From positions 64,001 through 83,264 of IMG/VR virus record IMGVR_UViG_3300023184_000076: DNA of 19,264 nt; one strand, written 5' to 3'. Under the pieces are notes generated by a model. It was not told the DNA's origin and did no database searches. It saw only the letters and a program-made list of their open reading frames with translations. Each line of letters starts with the position of its first letter. Positions within the stretch are counted from its first letter, which is position 1. Positions 1 through 19,264 of the stretch are shown one piece after another. The position numbers were made by a program, and so were the translations under genes. The DNA is from a virus (lineage: Duplodnaviria > Heunggongvirae > Uroviricota > Caudoviricetes).

Positions 1-576
1 CCATAATAATGGATCCGTATTTTTGATGAGGTATTGACCACCACCTGAATTTTCTTGATTTTGTTTTATAAGATCAACATCAATACCAACAATGTCGGCC
101 ATTTCTTGAAGTAGTTGTTCTTTATTTGATGTTGGGTGTTGTTTCTCATACCTATCACAACAATCTTTAATATAATTGTACCCAATATACCCTATAGTGT
201 CCGATAAATAAGATACGTTATCATTAAGTAACTTATTAAAATCAGGTAACCTATTAAAGATAATGTCAGAATCGTGTAGGAAAAATAACTTACCATTTTC
301 AGGGTATTCTTTTAACCATTCGTATATTAAATACGGTTTTATACTTGGTATGTATGATTTGTTTTCACGATCATCATCATAAAAATGAACATTGAACCCA
401 TAATTACATAATTCTAACGCACCTTGTGATGGTTGTTGTTTTTTCTGTAATCCAAAAATGACATGAATCTGACAAGGTTTAATTCCTTTCTCAATAAAAT
501 TATGTGTATATAATTTTACTTGCCAATGAAAATAGGGTACGTCAGGTTGTGCAGTTACAAATAGAATATCTTCCAT
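1..576 (-). CDS. Putative GT-A fold glycosyltransferase resembling GT96/GT95 peptide O-glycosyltransferases (3' end truncated by window start)
   Basis: Manual translation from ATG at 576 is open to position 1 (192 codons): MEDILFVTAQPDVPYFHWQVKLYTHNF...YIPSIKPYLIYEWL...LFFLHDSDIIF...SGGGQYLIKNTDPLLW. DxD motif (DSD, 265..273) follows a hydrophobic strand. YFHWQ and YIPSIKPYLIYEWL recall the YFDWQ / YPAINKP..V..WL motifs of plant serine galactosyltransferase as remembered, not searched. Not in the ORF track, presumably because no stop lies in the window. Confidence 0.75.
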   Translation of the reverse strand, partial: MEDILFVTAQPDVPYFHWQVKLYTHNFIEKGIKPCQIHVIFGLQKKQQPSQGALELCNYGFNVHFYDDDRENKSYIPSIKPYLIYEWLKEYPENGKLFFLHDSDIIFNRLPDFNKLLNDNVSYLSDTIGYIGYNYIKDCCDRYEKQHPTSNKEQLLQEMADIVGIDVDLIKQNQENSGGGQYLIKNTDPLLW

Positions 577-629
577 ACATTAAAAGATATTAGATAATTG
601 TTAAAAGTGTATTTTACTTCAAAAAGGTT

Positions 630-3323
630 TTAAGGCGAACAAGAAGGAAAACCAGTGACCACCCCAGCGGTTACTTGAGCAATTGCGTTGTATGTTGGTG
701 ATCCTCCCAATTTAACTAAAAAATACCCTGACAAACTGGTTGATACGTCACATCCTGTGGTACTAGGGTGTAAAAAAGACCCGATTTGTGGTTCGATTTC
801 ATCGAGATATGGACCATAGGAAAGGTTGACATAACAAGTAGTTCCTGTAACACAATTTAATGCAACACAAGCAGTTGATAAGTTAAAAGTAAAACCTCCC
901 GTAGTGTCTGTGGAGGCCGCAAAATCAACCTGATATGGGTGAGAAATACTATTATTACAAGTTGCCGTTGGTGTCGGTGTGGGTGTTAAAGTTTGTGTTA
1001 CTGTTGGTGTGGGAGTTAAGGTTTGTGTTAAGGTTGGTGTGGGAGTTAAGGTTGGTGTGGTCGTTAAAGTTTGAGTTAAGGTTGGTGTGGGAGTTAAAGT
1101 TTGAGTTAAGGTTAAAGTAGGGGTTAAGGTTAAAGTAGGTGTCGGAGTAGGTGTAGTTATACATTGTTGACAAGAAATATTATACTCCAATTTTAAATTG
1201 ATCACAATATTAGCATCAGATAAATAATAAATTGTTTCAGGTTGACAACCTTCTATTTCCACACATTTATTGTAGATTTTAATCTCATTTGTTGCGTAAT
1301 TAATTTCGACTTTACTTATTCCATCATAACTTTCCAAAACTTCGGTAATTGCTTGACCCCACGCATAATCGGAAGGATAATCTGTTAATCCTGAAGAAAC
1401 GTAAAACGATTGTTGAGTATTTATACCATCAACAGTTATGTCCGCAATAAAATTCGCACTTTTTAAAATACATCCAGTATCATCATAAGTAAGATCCTTA
1501 AATCCTTCAGATAACATTTGTTGCATACCTCGTTTACCAAGTATTCCCGTATTTTGGAAATTATCGTTACAGATATTATATGTTTGATAACTTAAATTTT
1601 TATTAGTTCCAGATAAAGTGACTGTTTTTGTATATGTACATCCACTTGAATCTATAATTTCCAAACTATAGGTCCCTCCACTTAATGAAGTAACAGTTGA
1701 TCCTGTTTGCCCATTAACGTTTGGGCTCCAATTATATGTAAATGTTGGTGTACCTCCATAAATTAATGTAGATATTGCTCCATTGTTACCACTTGTTGGT
1801 TGAGTCACAACCAAATCAAATAATACCCCATTAGAATTATTTACATAAAGATTTAAAGTTTGTGAACAACCTGTACTATCAGTTACTGTCCCAACATAAT
1901 TACCGGGAGCTAAATTACTAAATGTTGTTACAGGTGAAGGTGGATAACCTGTTATCTGATAACTATATGGTAAAGTACCACCTGAACTTGCTAATAATTG
2001 TATTGATCCGTTATTTAAACCACAAGTAGTATTTTGTGTTATTGCCGAAATTGTAAATTTTTCGGTATTATTAATTGTAACTGTTGTCTCATAAGTACAC
2101 ACACCATCAGTTATTACTAAATCATAATTACCTGAAGATAATGTATTAAATTGTTGTACTATATTAGTAGTAGGACCAAAATTTGTTGTATTATTTAACG
2201 AATCAGTTAAACTATATGTATAATATCCTGACCCAATTAAAGTGATGGTTACTGACCCTGAGTTATCATTACAAATTGAATTTGTTGTATTAACACTTAA
2301 TACTTGAAAGCTATTTGATGTGTTAATTGATGTTGTTCCTGATACTTTACATATTCCAGCATCTATTATATTAAAATTATATGATCCTGAGAATAACCCC
2401 GTAAATGTATATTCATCATTAAAAATAATTGCACTATCACCGTTTGAACACCCTATATAATATGGTGCGGTTCCTCCTGTTACAATTATAGTTATTTCAC
2501 CATTGTTTACAAAACAATCAGGTGGGTATGTCATAAATCCACCAATACCTAATGGTTCCACACCTGTGATAGTTATTGTCTTACTTGCAACACAACCATC
2601 TTCGTTAATTACTTGTACGTTATACAATCCTGCAGTTAAACCTGTTACCGTTGTTCCCGTTTGTCCATTAACACTTGTTAACCAATTAACGGTATATAGA
2701 CTTGGATCAGATAAACCTGTTAAAAATATTTTACCACTCCCGTCACTACTTATACAACTTCCATCATTTACTACGTAATAACCATAATCAAAAGGGATTG
2801 AGTCTCTAACTATACAAGATTCACTCACACCTATACAACCACCCCCATCATCACCAACAACATAATAAGTTCCCGCAGGAACAGGTGGAAAAACATATTC
2901 ATTACTTACTGATGTTCCACTTGAGATATAATTATCATCAATGTCAAATAATGTGAAGGTCGCAACACTACCATAAATAGATTGTGTTGTTGCGGTTATA
3001 CCACCATTATCAAATCCACAAGTAGTATCTGTAGTGTTTATAGACACACAAGTACCTGAAGATATGTAGAAATTTACAACAACATAATTAGTATATGTTG
3101 AATCGTATACTCGTAAAAAATAACTGCCCGCACTTAAACCTGAATAATAATAAACGTAATCAACCACCGTTAATGCAGAAGTTGGTAAATTAAGGTCAGC
3201 GGTAGGTGTTTCAATCACCAACCAATCTGGACTATCCCCCGTTACAGAAAAAGTTACTTCACCTAACCCTTCATTTGAACAATCTCCCGTTACGGAAAAC
3301 CCATATACACTTATTGATCCCAT
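630..3323 (-). CDS. SprB-repeat putative tail fibre/appendage protein (897 aa) with Thr/Pro stalk and small Cys-containing C-terminal domain
   Basis: About seven repeats of the pattern C..NG.I....GG..PY.Y......F..L..G.Y...V.D..GC (e.g. TTCGLNNGSIQLLASSGGTLPYSYQ...LAPGNYVGTVTDSTGC) at ~1615..3305, the first degenerate; then a ~120-aa domain, an (X-T)33 stalk and a ~105-aa tip. No signal peptide or T9SS C-terminal signal evident. Located at the end of a baseplate gene cluster. Confidence 0.8.
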   Translation of the reverse strand: MGSISVYGFSVTGDCSNEGLGEVTFSVTGDSPDWLVIETPTADLNLPTSALTVVDYVYYYSGLSAGSYFLRVYDSTYTNYVVVNFYISSGTCVSINTTDTTCGFDNGGITATTQSIYGSVATFTLFDIDDNYISSGTSVSNEYVFPPVPAGTYYVVGDDGGGCIGVSESCIVRDSIPFDYGYYVVNDGSCISSDGSGKIFLTGLSDPSLYTVNWLTSVNGQTGTTVTGLTAGLYNVQVINEDGCVASKTITITGVEPLGIGGFMTYPPDCFVNNGEITIIVTGGTAPYYIGCSNGDSAIIFNDEYTFTGLFSGSYNFNIIDAGICKVSGTTSINTSNSFQVLSVNTTNSICNDNSGSVTITLIGSGYYTYSLTDSLNNTTNFGPTTNIVQQFNTLSSGNYDLVITDGVCTYETTVTINNTEKFTISAITQNTTCGLNNGSIQLLASSGGTLPYSYQITGYPPSPVTTFSNLAPGNYVGTVTDSTGCSQTLNLYVNNSNGVLFDLVVTQPTSGNNGAISTLIYGGTPTFTYNWSPNVNGQTGSTVTSLSGGTYSLEIIDSSGCTYTKTVTLSGTNKNLSYQTYNICNDNFQNTGILGKRGMQQMLSEGFKDLTYDDTGCILKSANFIADITVDGINTQQSFYVSSGLTDYPSDYAWGQAITEVLESYDGISKVEINYATNEIKIYNKCVEIEGCQPETIYYLSDANIVINLKLEYNISCQQCITTPTPTPTLTLTPTLTLTQTLTPTPTLTQTLTTTPTLTPTPTLTQTLTPTPTVTQTLTPTPTPTATCNNSISHPYQVDFAASTDTTGGFTFNLSTACVALNCVTGTTCYVNLSYGPYLDEIEPQIGSFLHPSTTGCDVSTSLSGYFLVKLGGSPTYNAIAQVTAGVVTGFPSCSP
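960..1157 (-). repeat. Coding tandem repeat: (X-Thr)33 Pro/Thr-rich linker
   Basis: 66 codons, TTPTPTPTLTLTPTLTLTQTLTPTPTLTQTLTTTPTLTPTPTLTQTLTPTPTVTQTLTPTPTPTAT. The DNA unit gttggtgtgggagttaa occurs at 1003, 1033 and 1081. Confidence 0.95.
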
Positions 3324-6300
3324 TATTGATTACAAATTATATCAAAATTTATCCCCACATTTAATTCAAAATTGTTTTGATCATCAAGTGACACACAATC
3401 ACTATTATATACTGTAACAATATTTGTTGTTTCGTTAATATTAAATGTTAAACCTTCACCAATCATTTGTGGTAATGAATCATAAAGAGCGTTTAACCAA
3501 TTAACTTGAGTCGGGAAACTTGTTCCACTAACAGAGTAACCATATCCATCAAAGAATTTGTACTCAACTAACTGATTTCCATTTAATCTTACATCTACAT
3601 ACCATTCAGATGTTAATGTATTTACCAAACAATCATTATTTAAATCATAACCATTGTTATTTAAATATGTAGTCAAAACCTGACCTAAAACCGCCCCGAA
3701 TGAATTCACCTGTGGATTAGACCCCCAGGGGTAAATAGGACATTCAACAGATTGTATTGGACAATCAAAAGGTAATAACTGACCAATAGCATAACAAGGA
3801 TCACATGGGACAGGAACAAGTTGACAACCCATTTGTCTTCTCCATACAAATTTTTGTCTATGGAAAATTGAGTTTTCTAATTTAGTTCCCGTATTCCATA
3901 TTGTAGTTGCAGGAACCATTTGTTCAATTAGTTTTATCCAATATGTACCTAATCCATTAACATAATCAATCATTGTTTGATATGTAAAATTATCGTTAGG
4001 AACATTAATTGCCTGACCTGATTCTAAATACTTCCAATAGATAGACTGAAGAGTCGGATAACCTCCCGTTTTTCCATCTGTAATAAATTGTCTATTTCTA
4101 ACATTAATCGTATTATGCCAAAAAGTTTGAGCAAACTCAAAAAATGTTTTTTCTTTAGGTTTAGGAACAATCTCAGTCCAATCTATCCCACCTCTTTGTG
4201 GGTAAGGAGTATTCGGATTAGGATTACAACGTGTTGGTTCAACATAATTTAATCCTTGATTAGGGATTGGGTAGTTATATTGTCGAGACATAGTCCATAC
4301 GTCATAAACCAAACCTTGAGCAGGATTCATGAATATGTCAACATTCTTAACATTTATAACTAATTTATCAGTATTCACAGGATAATACGCATTAAAGTTA
4401 CCATCAAAATTAGTTCTTAAACCATTTTGGGTGTCAGTCCAACTTTTCTTATTATCAACTACTCTACGTAATTTATACCCTAAATTCATATATGGGAAAG
4501 TTCTGTATCTTTGTAGGTATTCTTCACCATAGTTAAATGGTAATAATGTAGTTTGGTAATTAGGGTTAGCACCTGTAAATACACTATTTGTAGTATCTAT
4601 TTGTTCAGGCATTCTATGTTGTGGTGTGGATTCAAACCAACCTCCACCAATTTGGAAGTAGTAAGAGTCACTTATTGCCGGCATCGTAGGATAACCAAAA
4701 TCATCAATAGGATAATCCTCAGGATATACAATGGCATTAGATATAACACTAGTTGTTGTAAATCCTGTAAATTGTTGTCCTTGTATTGAATAGATGTCCG
4801 TAGTATCTAAAATAGGTAATTGTTGAGTATACGTACCTCCAGATAAATTAGCGTATTGACCATTAAATTCTTCAATATTTATTTTTTGATCCGCAATATA
4901 TATGTACTCATTAAATTCTATTAATGCTTCAGGAGCCCCAATTAATCTTAATAATATTTCAATAGATTTTCTTGTCCCTTTAGATTTAAAAAGATATGCT
5001 GAATTTAATACTAAATTTCTATAATATTGGTAGTTAAGTTCTTCAGGTGTCATACCAACCGACAAACCACTAAACTCATTAGTTCCAGTGGTAAACACAG
5101 AATCCAATAATTGGTCATTTGTGATCGGTGAAATATTTGTATCCCAACCTAATGTTTGTGCTAAATTTTTTAATAATTGTGATGGTATATCGTTTTTAAT
5201 GTTGTAATTAACATTATTCATGTTAGATAAAGCCGAAATAAATTTTTTGGTTTCATCAAAACTTCTACCATATATTTGTAAAACCTTTTCAATTTTTTGA
5301 TCAGGAGTATCAAATTCTTTTATTGCTCCTGTTGTTAAAAAACGAGAAATTAAATTGGTACGGTATAAATCTAAATTAAAAGCAAAATCATTTAAAGTCT
5401 CAAGGTAATTATCAAATGCCGCAGATGTAATATCTAAATTCCATTGCCCATTTTTAGGAAATGTTATTGCCTGAGTTGTTAAATAAATTGTACCATCTTC
5501 ATTTTCTCTAGGTACAGTAAACGTTGATGTATATATTGGTGTAATCGCTCTATTTAATAGGAATTGTTCAACCTCATCCATAGATTCGTTGAATGTCTTA
5601 TTAACATAGGTATCATTAGGTCTTATAACTAATGTATCATAGGATATGTTATTCCCTAAAAATGGATTACCTCTTACAACAAAACTTAAGGTTGTTGATG
5701 TGTTATTTGATGGACTATAAAAAATTATAGGATATTCATTACCATTTGAAAATAACGAATATTTTGTGTAATTTGCAGTAAAGTTTCTTAAACGAGAAAC
5801 TTCAATTTCAAGTAATTCAAAATTTCTATTTGCGTTTGAACTATAATCTATGTCAAATGGATTTCTTAATGAATTTATATAAACATCAAATGTGGTCTCA
5901 TTTTCAACGGAATCGTATTGAATGTTAAATGCGGTTTCTGCGGTACTATAATTAGGTAACGTCGCACTAATTTCTAAACCCGCAGGGAAAAAATTAATTA
6001 TATGTGAAATTGACGTAGAAATTCTCTTAACTAATGACCCATATAAAGTAAAGTTAGTTACTTGGGATAAATCAAAATTAGGGTAAACTTTAAAATTGTT
6101 AGCCTGTATTACTCTTGATTCAGTAACACTTTCAATATTTAACGTATCTAAAGATATTGGTTCTGAAAACGCACCTATACTAAAATTTCTATCTTGTTTT
6201 TCGGTAATTGACGTAGTAAATTCAAAATTTGCTTGAGTAAAACCTCCCCCATCAACAAGTTGTAAACCAACTAAGTTGTCAGAAAATGTTCCTTGACCGC

Positions 6301-16493: not shown

Positions 16494-16500
16494 ATAAATA
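16494..16500 (-). promoter_or_regulatory. Candidate late promoter core TATTTAT
   Basis: Same core as the 7282 and 18854 sites, 14 nt upstream of the ATG at 16479, in an intergenic gap. The region is very AT-rich, so chance occurrence is possible. Confidence 0.4.
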
Positions 16501-16550
16501 GTTTATTTCCTATTTTCAAAAAATAGTTCTAATTAAAAAAAAATAAATTA

Positions 16551-18389
16551 TCAGGAGAAATTAACTGTACTTAAATTGATAACTCTAACATTTATATCTT
16601 TGTTAGGGAATCTAATTTGATAAATTTGTGTAGGTTCAGCAAAAATGGTGTCCGCAATTAATTGGATTTGTTTTGTTGCGGGGTCTGAATATTTTTGAGA
16701 TGTTTGATTTGAAGAGTACTGACCCCCAACCTTATTAAAGAATTCCATGTCAGAAATACTTATTACACCATTTTCCGCTTGGATCAATCTTCTCAATTCT
16801 GACACAACAACATTTTGACCTAATTGTCTTGATGTTGGACTAAAGTACGTTGTAATGATATCAATAATTTTAGATACAATTGCACCTTGATTTTGACTAG
16901 CATCCAACACAACGTCAACATTAACGGCCAAGTCAATCGGATTAGCACTTTCAATAGAAATGTAGTCATTAATCATCCTGTAGTTTGATAGGTAACTTGC
17001 CACATTACTTTTTAATGTGTTTGATATTGTATCTGTTAAATTACCACTTGTATCGTAAGATAACATTTTTATTTTTATCATGTTATTTTCCTCAGTAATT
17101 GCAACTTTTGCAGGTGCCCCAAACTGAGAAGGCATTGTTCTAATAATTGATTCGTAATCATTTATTGTAACCGCTCTATTTTGTGCTGAGAAGTTATATG
17201 AGACCATATTTCTTACTTCTTCAAGTGTTGGTGCGTTTGCCCCTCCAATTGCCGCAGTAACGTTATTACATTTCAATGTATTAATAACAGATCTGTTAAC
17301 ACTTTCTGAAGGTCCATTAACAAAGAATGAAACCGTACCAATTTGATTGATTACGTTAACCCCTAAATTAGTTGCTTGCCCACCACCAACTCTATATTGT
17401 ATAAACAATGTTGAGTTTGATTTAAGTGCCGCCCCTAATGCCAAATTGTTCGAATATTTATTTAAGTCAAATCCTTTACCAGATCTTGCAAAATCTCTAA
17501 GTTGTTCTTCAGCAGAAACATTACCACCACCAAATGTCATTTTTAAATAACCTTCAGGTGTGTACTCAGATGTAAATTTAGTGTTAGTTAAAATATATTT
17601 CCCAACCTTAATACCAGGTTGATCAGACGCTTTAGTTGGGTCTTCAATGAATACTCTGTCTTCAGCAAGTGCCTTAACTTCATACCATCTATTATCCAAT
17701 CCTAAAAATTCCTGTGGATTTGGGATTGTATTAAATTGAGTTCCGTCTTTTAAAAGGACACTTGTTATACCTAAAACATTTTTTTCAGGTAAGAACAATT
17801 CAAAGAATGGTTTAACATCATTTGGTGTAATAACTCGTTTGAATACTTTTGTAAACCCGTTTACAACAACTTCTCTTTTTGTAATGGTATAATTTAATAT
17901 TTTACCATTAGCGTCAAAGTTAGGGGTTTTTAATCTATTTAATGTTCCTTCTGAATTTATTGCCGAAGCAAAATCAATATCATAAACTGTTTCAAATGGT
18001 TGACCAGCACCACTTACTTGGGATCCTCTTCTTAGGATACCACAATATCTTAAATCTTCTCTATCACCAAACGCAGGAACCGTTATTGAGAAATCTACTA
18101 ATGCCACTGAAGGTCTTTGACCCGGTATTTTTAACCCGTAAGTCTTAGCGATATTATATACTGAAGATTTTTGTTGAGCAAATTGTAATACCGTTTCTTG
18201 GATACTTCTATCAATATTAAATTGTAGGTTATCTGTAACGGCAGCATTTAAATCTAACATTACTGAGAAAACCCCAGCATCGTTAAAGTTTTGTACCAAA
18301 TCAGGATAATAAGTACGAGTAAAATTAATTAACTCAGTTCTTATTCCTTGAAAATCTCTGGTTGTGTAGGATATTTTTTTCTCAGCCAT
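16551..18389 (-). CDS. Baseplate wedge subunit, T4 gp6 / baseplate J-like (612 aa)
   Basis: N-terminal RDFQGIRTELINF...FNDAGVFSVMLDLNAAVTD...ETVLQFAQQKSSVYNIAKTYGLK and C-terminal AAIGGANAPTLEEVR...FSAQNRAVTINDYE match the gp6/gpJ pattern (GG...E..EE.R......Q.RAVT..DY). Confidence 0.88.
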   Translation of the reverse strand: MAEKKISYTTRDFQGIRTELINFTRTYYPDLVQNFNDAGVFSVMLDLNAAVTDNLQFNIDRSIQETVLQFAQQKSSVYNIAKTYGLKIPGQRPSVALVDFSITVPAFGDREDLRYCGILRRGSQVSGAGQPFETVYDIDFASAINSEGTLNRLKTPNFDANGKILNYTITKREVVVNGFTKVFKRVITPNDVKPFFELFLPEKNVLGITSVLLKDGTQFNTIPNPQEFLGLDNRWYEVKALAEDRVFIEDPTKASDQPGIKVGKYILTNTKFTSEYTPEGYLKMTFGGGNVSAEEQLRDFARSGKGFDLNKYSNNLALGAALKSNSTLFIQYRVGGGQATNLGVNVINQIGTVSFFVNGPSESVNRSVINTLKCNNVTAAIGGANAPTLEEVRNMVSYNFSAQNRAVTINDYESIIRTMPSQFGAPAKVAITEENNMIKIKMLSYDTSGNLTDTISNTLKSNVASYLSNYRMINDYISIESANPIDLAVNVDVVLDASQNQGAIVSKIIDIITTYFSPTSRQLGQNVVVSELRRLIQAENGVISISDMEFFNKVGGQYSSNQTSQKYSDPATKQIQLIADTIFAEPTQIYQIRFPNKDINVRVINLSTVNFS

Positions 18390-18395
18390 ATACTA

Positions 18396-18854
18396 TTAAA
18401 TATTGATAATAACAAAATCACTACTTTCAAAGGCTTGATTTGTGACCTTATAGTCTATTTTAATTTTTGCGGTATGTTCTTTTTCACTTATACCTTGTAC
18501 TTTAAATTCTCTTTCTCCATCAGGATTAATAAAAGTACCCTTATCCTCTTCACCTAAAGAAGCGTCGGTAATTGATATGTTAGTTATTTGTACACCTGGC
18601 ATATATTTCTCAACCGAATCCCTGATTTCACCTTCTATTTCACTAAATGTAGGTCCATCAAGAGGCTCAAAAATATACTCATACAACCTTGTTCCAAAAT
18701 CAGGAAGATAATATCTATACCCTTTTCTAGTTAACAATAAATGAATTAAATTACTTCTTACTTCTTCTTCAGTTGTATCAGAAATATCTAAATATTTACC
18801 AACGTAAGATTCTCTAAAAGGAAAATTTATTCCGTATGTTATTCCATTTGCCAT
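18396..18854 (-). CDS. Baseplate wedge / sheath-initiator protein, T4 gp25 / P2 gpW-like (152 aa)
   Basis: EEVRSNLIHLLLTRKGYRYYLPDFGTRLYEYIFEP...EIRDSVEKYMPGVQITNISI matches the I..IL.T..GER...P.FG..L...LFE signature of gp25/gpW. Confidence 0.9.
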   Translation of the reverse strand: MANGITYGINFPFRESYVGKYLDISDTTEEEVRSNLIHLLLTRKGYRYYLPDFGTRLYEYIFEPLDGPTFSEIEGEIRDSVEKYMPGVQITNISITDASLGEEDKGTFINPDGEREFKVQGISEKEHTAKIKIDYKVTNQAFESSDFVIINI

Positions 18855-18952: not shown

Positions 18953-19264
18953 CTAAGATGAACATCCGAAACATTCAAACTCTGAACTATCAGGTTTTTG
19001 TGGTAAATCCATGTTAGAAAAGTCTACTTTTGGTGTTTCAACTTTTTTAATTGGTTCTCTCTTTGTCATATCCAACGCCAAGTGTTTTGCTCCTGTTGAA
19101 ATTGCCTTTGTTCTAACGTAGTAACAAAGTGTCTTCAATCCTTTCTCCCAAGAGTGGAAGTGTGATGAGGTAATCTTTGACAATGTTGGGTTTGACATAT
19201 AGATATTCATTGATTGTGATTGATCAATAAATGGTGCTCTGTCTGCCGCCATGTTGATAAGTTC
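18953..19264 (-). CDS. nrdA: Ribonucleoside-diphosphate reductase class Ia alpha subunit, C-terminal fragment (5' part outside window)
   Basis: ELINMAADRAPFIDQSQSMN...KITSSHFHSWEKGLKTLCYYVRTK...ECFGCSS matches MAADRGAFIDQSQSLN, WxxGLKTxxYYxRT and the C-terminal CxxC shuttle of the eukaryote-like/Bacteroidota NrdA type. The frame is open to the window end. Confidence 0.93.
   Translation of the reverse strand, partial: ELINMAADRAPFIDQSQSMNIYMSNPTLSKITSSHFHSWEKGLKTLCYYVRTKAISTGAKHLALDMTKREPIKKVETPKVDFSNMDLPQKPDSSEFECFGCSS

Follow-up and report, generated by a model that had tools for sequence, protein, structure and literature searches.

A soluble glycosyltransferase encoded beside a threonine/proline stalk in a jumbo phage: a candidate cytoplasmic O-glycosyltransferase for virion proteins

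The stretch of DNA analysed here (the window) is the final 19,264 bp of an 83,264-bp contig from a tailed freshwater jumbo phage (IMG/VR record IMGVR_UViG_3300023184_000076, positions 64,001 to 83,264), whose completeness is put at ∼29% by CheckV and whose host is probably a member of the Bacteroidota. The window is AT-rich (GC content ∼32%), and the minus strand carries every one of its real genes. Our subject is the pair of genes at its left end, namely a glycosyltransferase gene, which extends 399 nt past the left edge of the window, and the gene that precedes it in transcription order, which encodes a large protein with a threonine/proline (Thr/Pro) stalk. The features of this pair are as follows, with lengths of proteins given in amino acids (aa).

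1-576, minus strand: first 192 codons of the glycosyltransferase gene (324 aa; protein P0003; full open reading frame (ORF) L001:1105-2076:-)
265-273, minus strand: DxD motif D102-S103-D104 within HDSDIIF, with D102 and D104 invariant in a 63-sequence alignment (A1)
577-629, minus strand: 53-nt intergenic gap from the 897-aa gene (stop codon 630-632) to the transferase gene (next ATG 574-576)
630-3323, minus strand: gene for an 897-aa protein resembling a fibre or adhesin, which has SprB-type repeats, a Thr/Pro stalk and, at its C-terminus, a cysteine (Cys)-containing domain (from the ORF and Pfam)
1947-2045, minus strand: top-scoring SprB repeat, residues 427-459, with more repeats on either side (Pfam PF13573)
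960-1157, minus strand: (X-Thr)33 stalk, residues 723-788, of TPTPTLTQT-type units, the proposed O-glycosylation acceptor (from the sequence)
633-959, minus strand: C-terminal domain of ∼109 aa beyond the stalk, with 6 Cys, ending in ...SCSP (from the sequence)

The 897-aa protein matches SprB (PF13573) over three stretches, with an E-value of 2.6e-10 and a score of 40.2 bits against a cut-off of 28, and neither a signal peptide nor a membrane segment was found in it. An earlier note on this DNA had described an (X-Thr)33 Pro/Thr stalk in this protein, and its longest unbroken run of X-Thr dipeptides is indeed exactly 33 units long, with 34 Thr, 14 Pro, 11 leucine (Leu) and 4 glutamine (Gln) residues. 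The DNA that encodes the stalk is an imperfect tandem repeat with periods of 18, 30 and 48 nt (positions 967-1139), and in relatives a tract of 24-139 residues occupies the corresponding position of the orthologous protein. The domain beyond the stalk may be a binding head. SprB repeats are common to the 897-aa protein and a 446-aa protein encoded just past the transferase; BLASTP among the contig proteins revealed no shared domain beyond these repeats, and a 120-aa domain in common with an upstream wedge protein was not recovered by BLASTP at an E-value of 1e-4. The same note had the transferase starting 53 nt past the stop codon of a structural protein on the same strand, with no terminator between the two genes. 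Both statements hold, as the gap has this length and a terminator scan found no hairpin within it; the only terminator-like match nearby, a weak 5-bp stem at 671-658, lies in coding sequence, and terminator matches in the region are about as many as in shuffled sequences.

The only annotation match of the transferase was to PHROG 4417, a family of unknown function (E-value 5e-40), and searches with P0003, both as a single sequence and as a profile, gave no match in Pfam (E-values up to 10), NCBIfam or the PDB sequences. Structure prediction with AlphaFold2 from the single sequence was useless (predicted local distance difference test score (pLDDT) 34); with the alignment of 63 homologues, in which identity falls to 30%, the model reached a pLDDT of 97.6 and a predicted template modelling (TM) score of 0.94 and was globular from residue 4. 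All of the significant Foldseek matches of this model in PDB, AFDB and BFVD are GT-A enzymes. The matches in PDB were to the UGGT catalytic domain, WbbM, XXYLT1, LARGE1, glycogenin and LgtC (E-values of ∼1e-7 to 1e-5, probability 1.0), with TM-scores of 0.35-0.47 to the solved GT8-type, UGGT and XXYLT1 structures. The top Swiss-Prot models were Arabidopsis peptidyl-serine alpha-galactosyltransferase (SGT1, glycosyltransferase family GT96) and RDN1, PLENTY, NOD3 and HPAT1-3 (GT95), with TM-scores by query of 0.57-0.63 and E-values down to 5e-11, while GT8 galactinol synthases scored 0.42-0.47. When the AFDB clusters of the family itself were set aside, algal and protist proteins labelled 'hydroxyproline O-arabinosyltransferase-like' ranked first. 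Invariance in A1 is not confined to the two aspartates of the DxD motif, as H266, which lies outside the window, and about a dozen other residues (aromatic residues and glycines) are likewise invariant. P0003 contains no hydrophobic segment (maximum Kyte-Doolittle 19-residue mean 0.44). The GT-A fold, the invariant DxD and His residues and the lack of a hydrophobic segment therefore lead us to predict that the ORF encodes a soluble, probably metal-dependent GT-A glycosyltransferase.

The description of the enzyme in the earlier note as GT95/GT96-like stands for the fold and fails for the sequence family. None of 71 family members (the 63 aligned sequences and 8 GenBank homologues) had a significant match to the Pfam models for HPAT or other glycosyltransferases; the best HPAT E-value was 0.38, for one sequence among the 63 relatives, and the 8 GenBank homologues gave no HPAT match. 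A language-model search (Atlas) returned HPAT matches on 10% of the members of one related cluster, which is a lead only. P0003 is therefore not a sequence member of GT95 or GT96, and the likeness is at the level of the fold only. At that level the plant and algal GT95/GT96 enzymes (SGT1/SERGT1; HPAT1-3, RDN1, PLENTY and NOD3; Pfam PF23452) are the nearest structures outside the phage family itself, and have the GT-A fold with a DxD motif in common with it. These enzymes glycosylate hydroxyls of extended, Pro-rich, low-complexity peptides, and this type of acceptor matches the one that we propose for the phage enzyme. They differ from it in being type II membrane proteins of the Golgi or endoplasmic reticulum, whereas the phage enzyme is soluble and without a membrane anchor, in using serine (Ser) or hydroxyproline rather than the proposed Thr as acceptor, and in having no significant sequence similarity to the phage family. 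The GT8-type retaining enzymes (glycogenin, LgtC and galactinol synthase), UGGT (GT24) and XXYLT1 also have an architecture of DxD plus C-terminal His in common with the phage enzyme, but with lower TM-scores than the GT95/GT96 models and no sequence-level match; glycogenin, UGGT and XXYLT1 have proteins or protein-bound glycans as their substrates. From the GT8/GT96-like fold, one might guess that the chemistry of the phage enzyme is retaining.

Thr-rich tracts are concentrated around the transferase gene, both in this genome and in its relatives. Strong Thr/Ser/Pro tracts (16-17 of 20 residues) were found in only four proteins of the 83-kb contig, all encoded within 11 kb around the transferase. 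These are the 897-aa protein, the 446-aa protein directly past the transferase, with a TTTTSTTSTSTTT-type run and SprB repeats scoring 37-38 bits, and, farther on, proteins of 846 aa and 725 aa with PTPTPT tracts; two of the four carry SprB repeats, and a fifth, weaker tract (13 of 20) is present in a protein of 1824 aa. We took as the clade of this phage 79 IMG/VR loci, on contigs of up to 318 kb, in which the enzyme is 59-96% identical. Among ORFs of at least 200 aa in this clade, tracts were present in 204 of 456 (45%) at -4.5 to +7 kb from the transferase versus 5 of 272 (2%) farther out, and at least one Thr/Pro-tract protein was encoded near the transferase in all 65 loci with sufficient flank. 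The tracts vary freely in length (20-885 residues) and are of PT or TTTT type, with the two types swapping among orthologous positions, while the arrangement of the genes is constant. In many loci of the clade it is the upstream neighbour of the enzyme that bears a PT-type tract.

The same association was found in distant lineages. We compared 13 independent phage groups among 77 GenBank carriers of the gene, with hosts in the Bacillota, Actinomycetota and Bacteroidota, scoring as a tract any 12 residues with at least 8 Thr plus Ser and at least 5 Thr, and counting as distant any ORF more than two genes away. The immediately upstream ORF was tract-positive in 8 of the 13 lineages versus 11 of 401 distant ORFs (Fisher p = 4e-9), with most of these 11 being the C-terminal ends of capsid, tail-tube or portal proteins encoded by the same genomes. 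The homologue directly follows the major tail (tube) gene in the five siphophages Enterococcus phiFL1C, Staphylococcus PMBT8, Clostridium phiCTP1, Arcanobacterium TPWB06 and Lactococcus 1706, whose major tail proteins end in a poly-Thr tail of about 9-20 residues, and it is the next gene after a major capsid gene with a poly-Thr end in Lacticaseibacillus R3.3 and Enterococcus 4995_1. Small immunoglobulin-like or structural proteins with Thr-rich tails precede it in the Lactobacillus myophages Semele, 521B and LP65, and in 521B and LP65 these tails are of mixed composition (TTVKPTTVAP or TETQTQTQ). Chryseobacterium phage MA9V-3, the only other Bacteroidota phage of the comparison, has two upstream proteins with internal Thr/Ser runs of 31 and 70 residues. 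The carriers range from 36-kb temperate siphophages to jumbo phages of ∼300 kb, and in all 13 lineages the homologue lies in a late head/tail operon and not near integrase, replication or nucleotide-metabolism genes.

We also carried out the search in reverse, scanning IMG/VR for ten consecutive ACN codons, which gave 62 loci with an in-frame run of at least 10 Thr/Ser. A family member was present in six of these loci (E-values of 1e-88 to 1e-118), compared with 0.15% of GenBank phage records, and in all six the enzyme is the next downstream gene, on the same strand, after a protein of 556-2067 aa that contains several poly-Thr stalks internally and Cys residues at its C-terminal end, i.e. the architecture seen in the window. 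As a control for loss, we used the orthologues (37-60% identity) of the phiFL1C tail-tube protein in Javan47, Javan505 and Javan311 (Streptococcus), phiJL-1 (Lactobacillus), cIP1 (Pediococcus) and SPP1 (Bacillus). All six stop at a conserved ...PGETTGDY..., where phiFL1C and R3.3 run on into the poly-Thr tail. The transferase was not seen next to the tube gene in any of the six records (for phiJL-1, its absence was seen only beside the tail-tube gene), and the 77 carrier records include no Streptococcus, Pediococcus or Bacillus phage. Among these orthologues the tail and the enzyme therefore appear to have been gained and lost together. The earlier note had named synteny of the transferase with Thr/Pro-stalk genes as a check on its proposal, and homologues unlinked to such stalks as grounds for abandoning it; the link holds in the clade and in the 13 distant lineages, and has now survived four different tests.

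The enzyme thus has a GT-A fold with its catalytic motifs, and its gene order shows a tight, two-way link, across lineages, to Thr runs on virion proteins. Given the late-operon position, the shared gain and loss with Thr runs on surface-exposed virion proteins and a fold near that of enzymes acting on extended Pro-rich peptides, the simplest reading is that the phage enzyme works in the cytoplasm as a polypeptide O-glycosyltransferase and adds sugar to Thr-rich stretches of structural proteins of the same phage, and we give this a probability of about 0.7. The suggestion in the earlier note that the phage may glycosylate its own fibre or baseplate is in this respect strengthened by the fold and the four comparative tests, whereas protein Thr as the acceptor and the identity of the transferred sugar are inferred. 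Late in infection, the enzyme would take a host nucleotide sugar, with the DxD motif and the C-terminal His serving the metal and the diphosphate, and would, before assembly or in its course, transfer the sugar to Thr hydroxyls in Thr-rich segments of structural proteins that are extended and of low complexity. In this phage, the four fibre-like proteins encoded around the gene would offer as acceptors their internal stalks of (X-Thr)n, PT or poly-Thr type, including the (X-Thr)33 tract of the 897-aa protein, which is encoded at the end of the baseplate module and would itself be a member of the virion. The predicted products are mucin-like, glycan-clad stalks, for which stiffness, protease resistance or masking may be the benefit.

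Several points weigh against this interpretation. The clustering of tracts in the clade counts as one conserved synteny and not as 79 independent events. The acceptor in the window, which is internal and combines Thr with Pro, Leu and Gln, is unlike the pure C-terminal poly-Thr of the Bacillota phages, and internal tracts were found elsewhere only in MA9V-3 and the six IMG/VR loci. PT linkers are common as unglycosylated spacers in many bacterial proteins, and, as the contig covers only about 29% of the genome, the remainder may encode other transferases or targets. The upstream capsid gene has no tail in VPE25 and bIL285, where the tail is on the tail-tube gene five ORFs downstream. In the reverse search, 56 of the 62 poly-Thr loci had no family member within the short stretch examined, and among 54 neighbours in the remaining loci were three with other glycosyltransferase families (PF11397, GT25 and GT2); the family is the commonest, though not the sole, glycosyltransferase neighbour of Thr runs in this sample.

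The loci without a family member, and the frequency of PT linkers as spacers, would also be expected if the acceptor were not a phage protein at all but DNA bases, a host surface polysaccharide or teichoic acid (for conversion or superinfection exclusion) or a small molecule, with the tracts being ordinary flexible linkers; DNA glucosylation and serotype conversion are the best-known roles of phage glycosyltransferases (PMC12619734). We consider a non-protein acceptor unlikely, since it would not account for the position of the gene inside late head/tail operons beside a Thr-tailed gene in 13 lineages or for the co-variation of tail and enzyme in the tail-tube orthologues, and since the nearest folds are those of protein O-glycosyltransferases and not of DNA glucosyltransferases. 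In addition, the gene is carried by small temperate phages (bIL285 and phiFL1), although DNA glycosylation is unlikely in prophages, and the protein lacks the membrane segment expected of a transferase acting on surface polymers. Two specific forms of this alternative were rejected, i.e. DNA modification, in view of the position of the gene within structural operons of small temperate phages, and lysogenic conversion, because the protein has no membrane segment and the gene no link to integrase.

A narrower alternative accepts a protein O-glycosyltransferase but holds that only purer Thr/Ser runs are modified and that the (X-Thr)33 stalk is not a substrate. The targets could then be the TTTTSTTSTSTTT tract of the 446-aa protein, host proteins, or capsid or tail proteins whose genes lie in the 70% of the genome that the contig lacks. 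This would fit the nearly pure poly-Thr of the tracts associated with the enzyme in Bacillota and Actinomycetota phages, the alternation of Thr with Pro, Leu and Gln in the window tract, the purer Thr/Ser run borne by the gene immediately downstream of the transferase, and the incompleteness of the genome. However, PT-type tracts lie upstream of the enzyme in many loci of the clade and interchange with TTTT types, the mixed tails that accompany the enzyme in 521B and LP65 indicate that pure poly-Thr is not strictly needed, and the plant structural neighbours act on Pro-rich extended peptides. We therefore doubt that the enzyme is so restricted, and continue to regard the (X-Thr)33 stalk as a candidate acceptor of a polypeptide O-glycosyltransferase.

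The family to which the enzyme belongs is large. A word-indexed search gave 1,489 matches, all annotated as 'hypothetical' and without Pfam domains, and an exhaustive search of a representative library of 1.8 billion proteins gave 838 clusters at 50% identity. Members occur on about 600 or more IMG/VR contigs, and tblastn found homologues with 25-39% identity in 77 of 50,697 GenBank phage records (0.15%), among them dairy, Enterococcus and Staphylococcus phages. In some homologues, additional domains are fused to the family domain, namely PF11397 N-acetylglucosamine (GlcNAc)-transferase, protein O-fucosyltransferase, GT6, GT61, GT2/GT7C, class-24 methyltransferase and discoidin (F5/8 type C) domains. 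PF11397 is the family of Skp1 and mucin-type polypeptide GlcNAc-transferases. The fused homologues P0154, P0171, P0148, P0262, P0203 and P0211 are multi-enzyme proteins of up to 1,369 aa. Judged by their domain content, the fusions would fit a role in glycan building, quite possibly on protein.

The fusions also bear on whether the family might be a catalytically dead or structural derivative of the glycosyltransferase fold, acting as an assembly chaperone or as a lectin-like virion part that binds Thr-rich tails. Such a role would suit a gene that always lies within structural modules, but the fusions to active-type glycosyltransferase domains point to glycan assembly, and the DxD motif, His266 and the dozen or so further residues have stayed invariant over sequences with as little as 30% identity, which makes a dead enzyme very improbable. 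For an active O-glycosyltransferase, we lean with some reserve towards a general view of the family, in which it would be a dedicated polypeptide-Thr O-glycosyltransferase that starts cytoplasmic mucin-type glycosylation and is a structural counterpart, in viruses of prokaryotes, of the extensin-glycosylating plant GT95/GT96 enzymes. Thr runs, pure or alternating with Pro, would then be portable tags with which phages of at least three bacterial phyla coat capsids, tail tubes and, among freshwater Bacteroidota jumbo phages such as the present one, the stalks of SprB-repeat fibres.

The closest known system is that of the mycobacteriophages Che8, Corndog and Myrna, in which, according to two reports, phage-encoded transferases modify the phages' own structural proteins in the cytoplasm (PMC12619734, PMC13313380), with the glycans at the C-termini of capsid and tail-tube subunits according to the first (PMC12619734). 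These are the same two proteins that bear poly-Thr tails in the Bacillota and Actinomycetota carriers of the family. At the genomic level, the pattern of a phage-encoded transferase with putative acceptor segments on the phage's own structural proteins is seen here as well. The systems differ in their acceptors, which are C-terminal and on capsid and tail subunits in the mycobacteriophages and internal stalks of large fibre-like proteins in the window, and in their hosts, which here are Bacteroidota and Bacillota; the capsid and tube genes are not on the 83-kb contig. Low-complexity acceptors are also found in bacteria, as the Pro/Thr linkers of bacterial cellulases are O-glycosylated. Ser/Thr-rich disordered regions of streptococcal membrane proteins are O-glycan acceptors as well (PMC12041528). 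In both cases the sugars are added by membrane GT-C or GT2 pathways outside the cytoplasm, whereas the phage enzyme is soluble and the cytoplasm is where virion proteins are synthesised and assembled. According to one report, freshwater Bacteroidota 'moraphages' have a glutamine synthetase and four core glycosyltransferase groups of unassigned function (PMC12619734), and our contig may belong to these phages or to a related group.

In the full-text library searched, we came across no paper dealing with the family or with poly-Thr tails as a phage glycosylation tag. To our knowledge, virion glycosylation in tailed phages has been demonstrated experimentally only for actinobacteriophages, and we know of no prior description of glycan-clad, mucin-like stalks for phage fibres. 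Virion self-glycosylation as a process is already known; what is new is an unannotated enzyme family with plant-like structural neighbours and a simple proposed acceptor tag, and, in the window, a new class of substrate, i.e. internal stalks of fibre-like proteins in a Bacteroidota jumbo phage. If our interpretation is correct, sugar-coated virions would be widespread, given the number of clusters, IMG/VR contigs and GenBank phages that carry the family, and this would bear on immunogenicity and clearance in phage therapy and on adsorption, host range and particle stability. A simple sequence rule (a Thr run beside a family gene) would predict glycosylated phage proteins, mucin-like glycan-clad fibre stalks would be expected in this phage group in particular, and a small soluble enzyme with a short peptide tag might serve as a tool for cytoplasmic O-glycosylation in bacteria.

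Some further observations concern the tract proteins and the carriers. The poly-Thr-stalk proteins upstream of family members at the six unrelated IMG/VR loci (L101, L118, L131, L151, L157 and L165) end in short Cys motifs (...SCPTCP, ...DCAPC, ...NCPCI and ...GSCS), as the 897-aa protein does, and these ends may represent a shared small disulfide or metal-binding distal domain. Among the neighbours at the other poly-Thr loci, four (loci L102-L179) carry the glycine-rich domain PF21722, and eukaryotic viruses (baculovirus P47 and PP31) account for some of the poly-Thr loci that lack the family. In TPWB06 (L094:18425-19187) the major tail protein ends in nine Thr and is overlapped by a 69-codon ORF in another frame (18981-19187), which encodes almost pure Thr plus K, P, Q and S; the overlap looks like a frameshift-extended tail-tube isoform with a far longer Thr tract, by analogy with SPP1 gp17.1*. 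The homologue is split over two frames in phiFL1C (gp60/gp61; L008:19995-20900) and in phiFL2A (two tblastn pieces) and is intact in phiFL1A, phiFL1B and phiFL2B, and the split reflects a sequencing error or else a natural knock-out. Internal Thr runs with TTTTTTTTQAQD-type repeats are present in the annotated head maturation proteases of PMBT8 (L009:2524-3627) and at L094:14179-15300, which means that in those phages proteins other than capsid and tube also carry the tag. Clostridium phiCTP1 has two further proteins that terminate in Thr runs, namely its portal-sized gp4 and the small gp11.

The genes at the other end of the window, from which transcription runs towards the transferase, are as follows.

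18953-19264, minus strand: C-terminal piece of the ribonucleotide reductase large subunit, truncated at the contig end (Pfam PF02867, E-value 7e-14)
18396-18854, minus strand: gp25-like baseplate wedge gene, 152 aa (Pfam/PHROG matches)
16551-18389, minus strand: Baseplate-J/gp6-like gene, 612 aa (Pfam/PHROG matches)

The gp25-like and Baseplate-J/gp6-like genes (16551-18854) mark this block of genes as a tail/baseplate module, and the structural-module setting that the earlier note had given to the transferase is thereby borne out, with both genes upstream of it on the same strand. The ribonucleotide reductase piece sits immediately upstream of them. The Baseplate-J gene is followed by six large genes without family matches, encoding proteins of 1824, 577, 269, 392, 301 and 1005 aa; transcription order then ends with the 897-aa gene, whose start overlaps the 1005-aa gene stop at position 3323, the 53-nt gap and the transferase ORF. 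Megablast of positions 1-3400 of the window against GenBank phages gave no match. A sigma-70 scan of the region was uninformative (19 matches against 19.1 expected). A ATAAACTATTTAT-like motif is, with two mismatches allowed, no commoner in the window than in shuffled sequences, and we therefore make no claim on separate or joint transcription of the two genes. The motif lies 15-35 nt upstream of several structural genes (the window copy is at 16494-16506), and also upstream of the genes at genome positions 59665-62205, 62244-63584, 70343-71248 and 82396-82854; it is present ahead of neighbouring structural genes and absent from the gap at 577-629, where TATCTTTT stands in its place upstream of the transferase.

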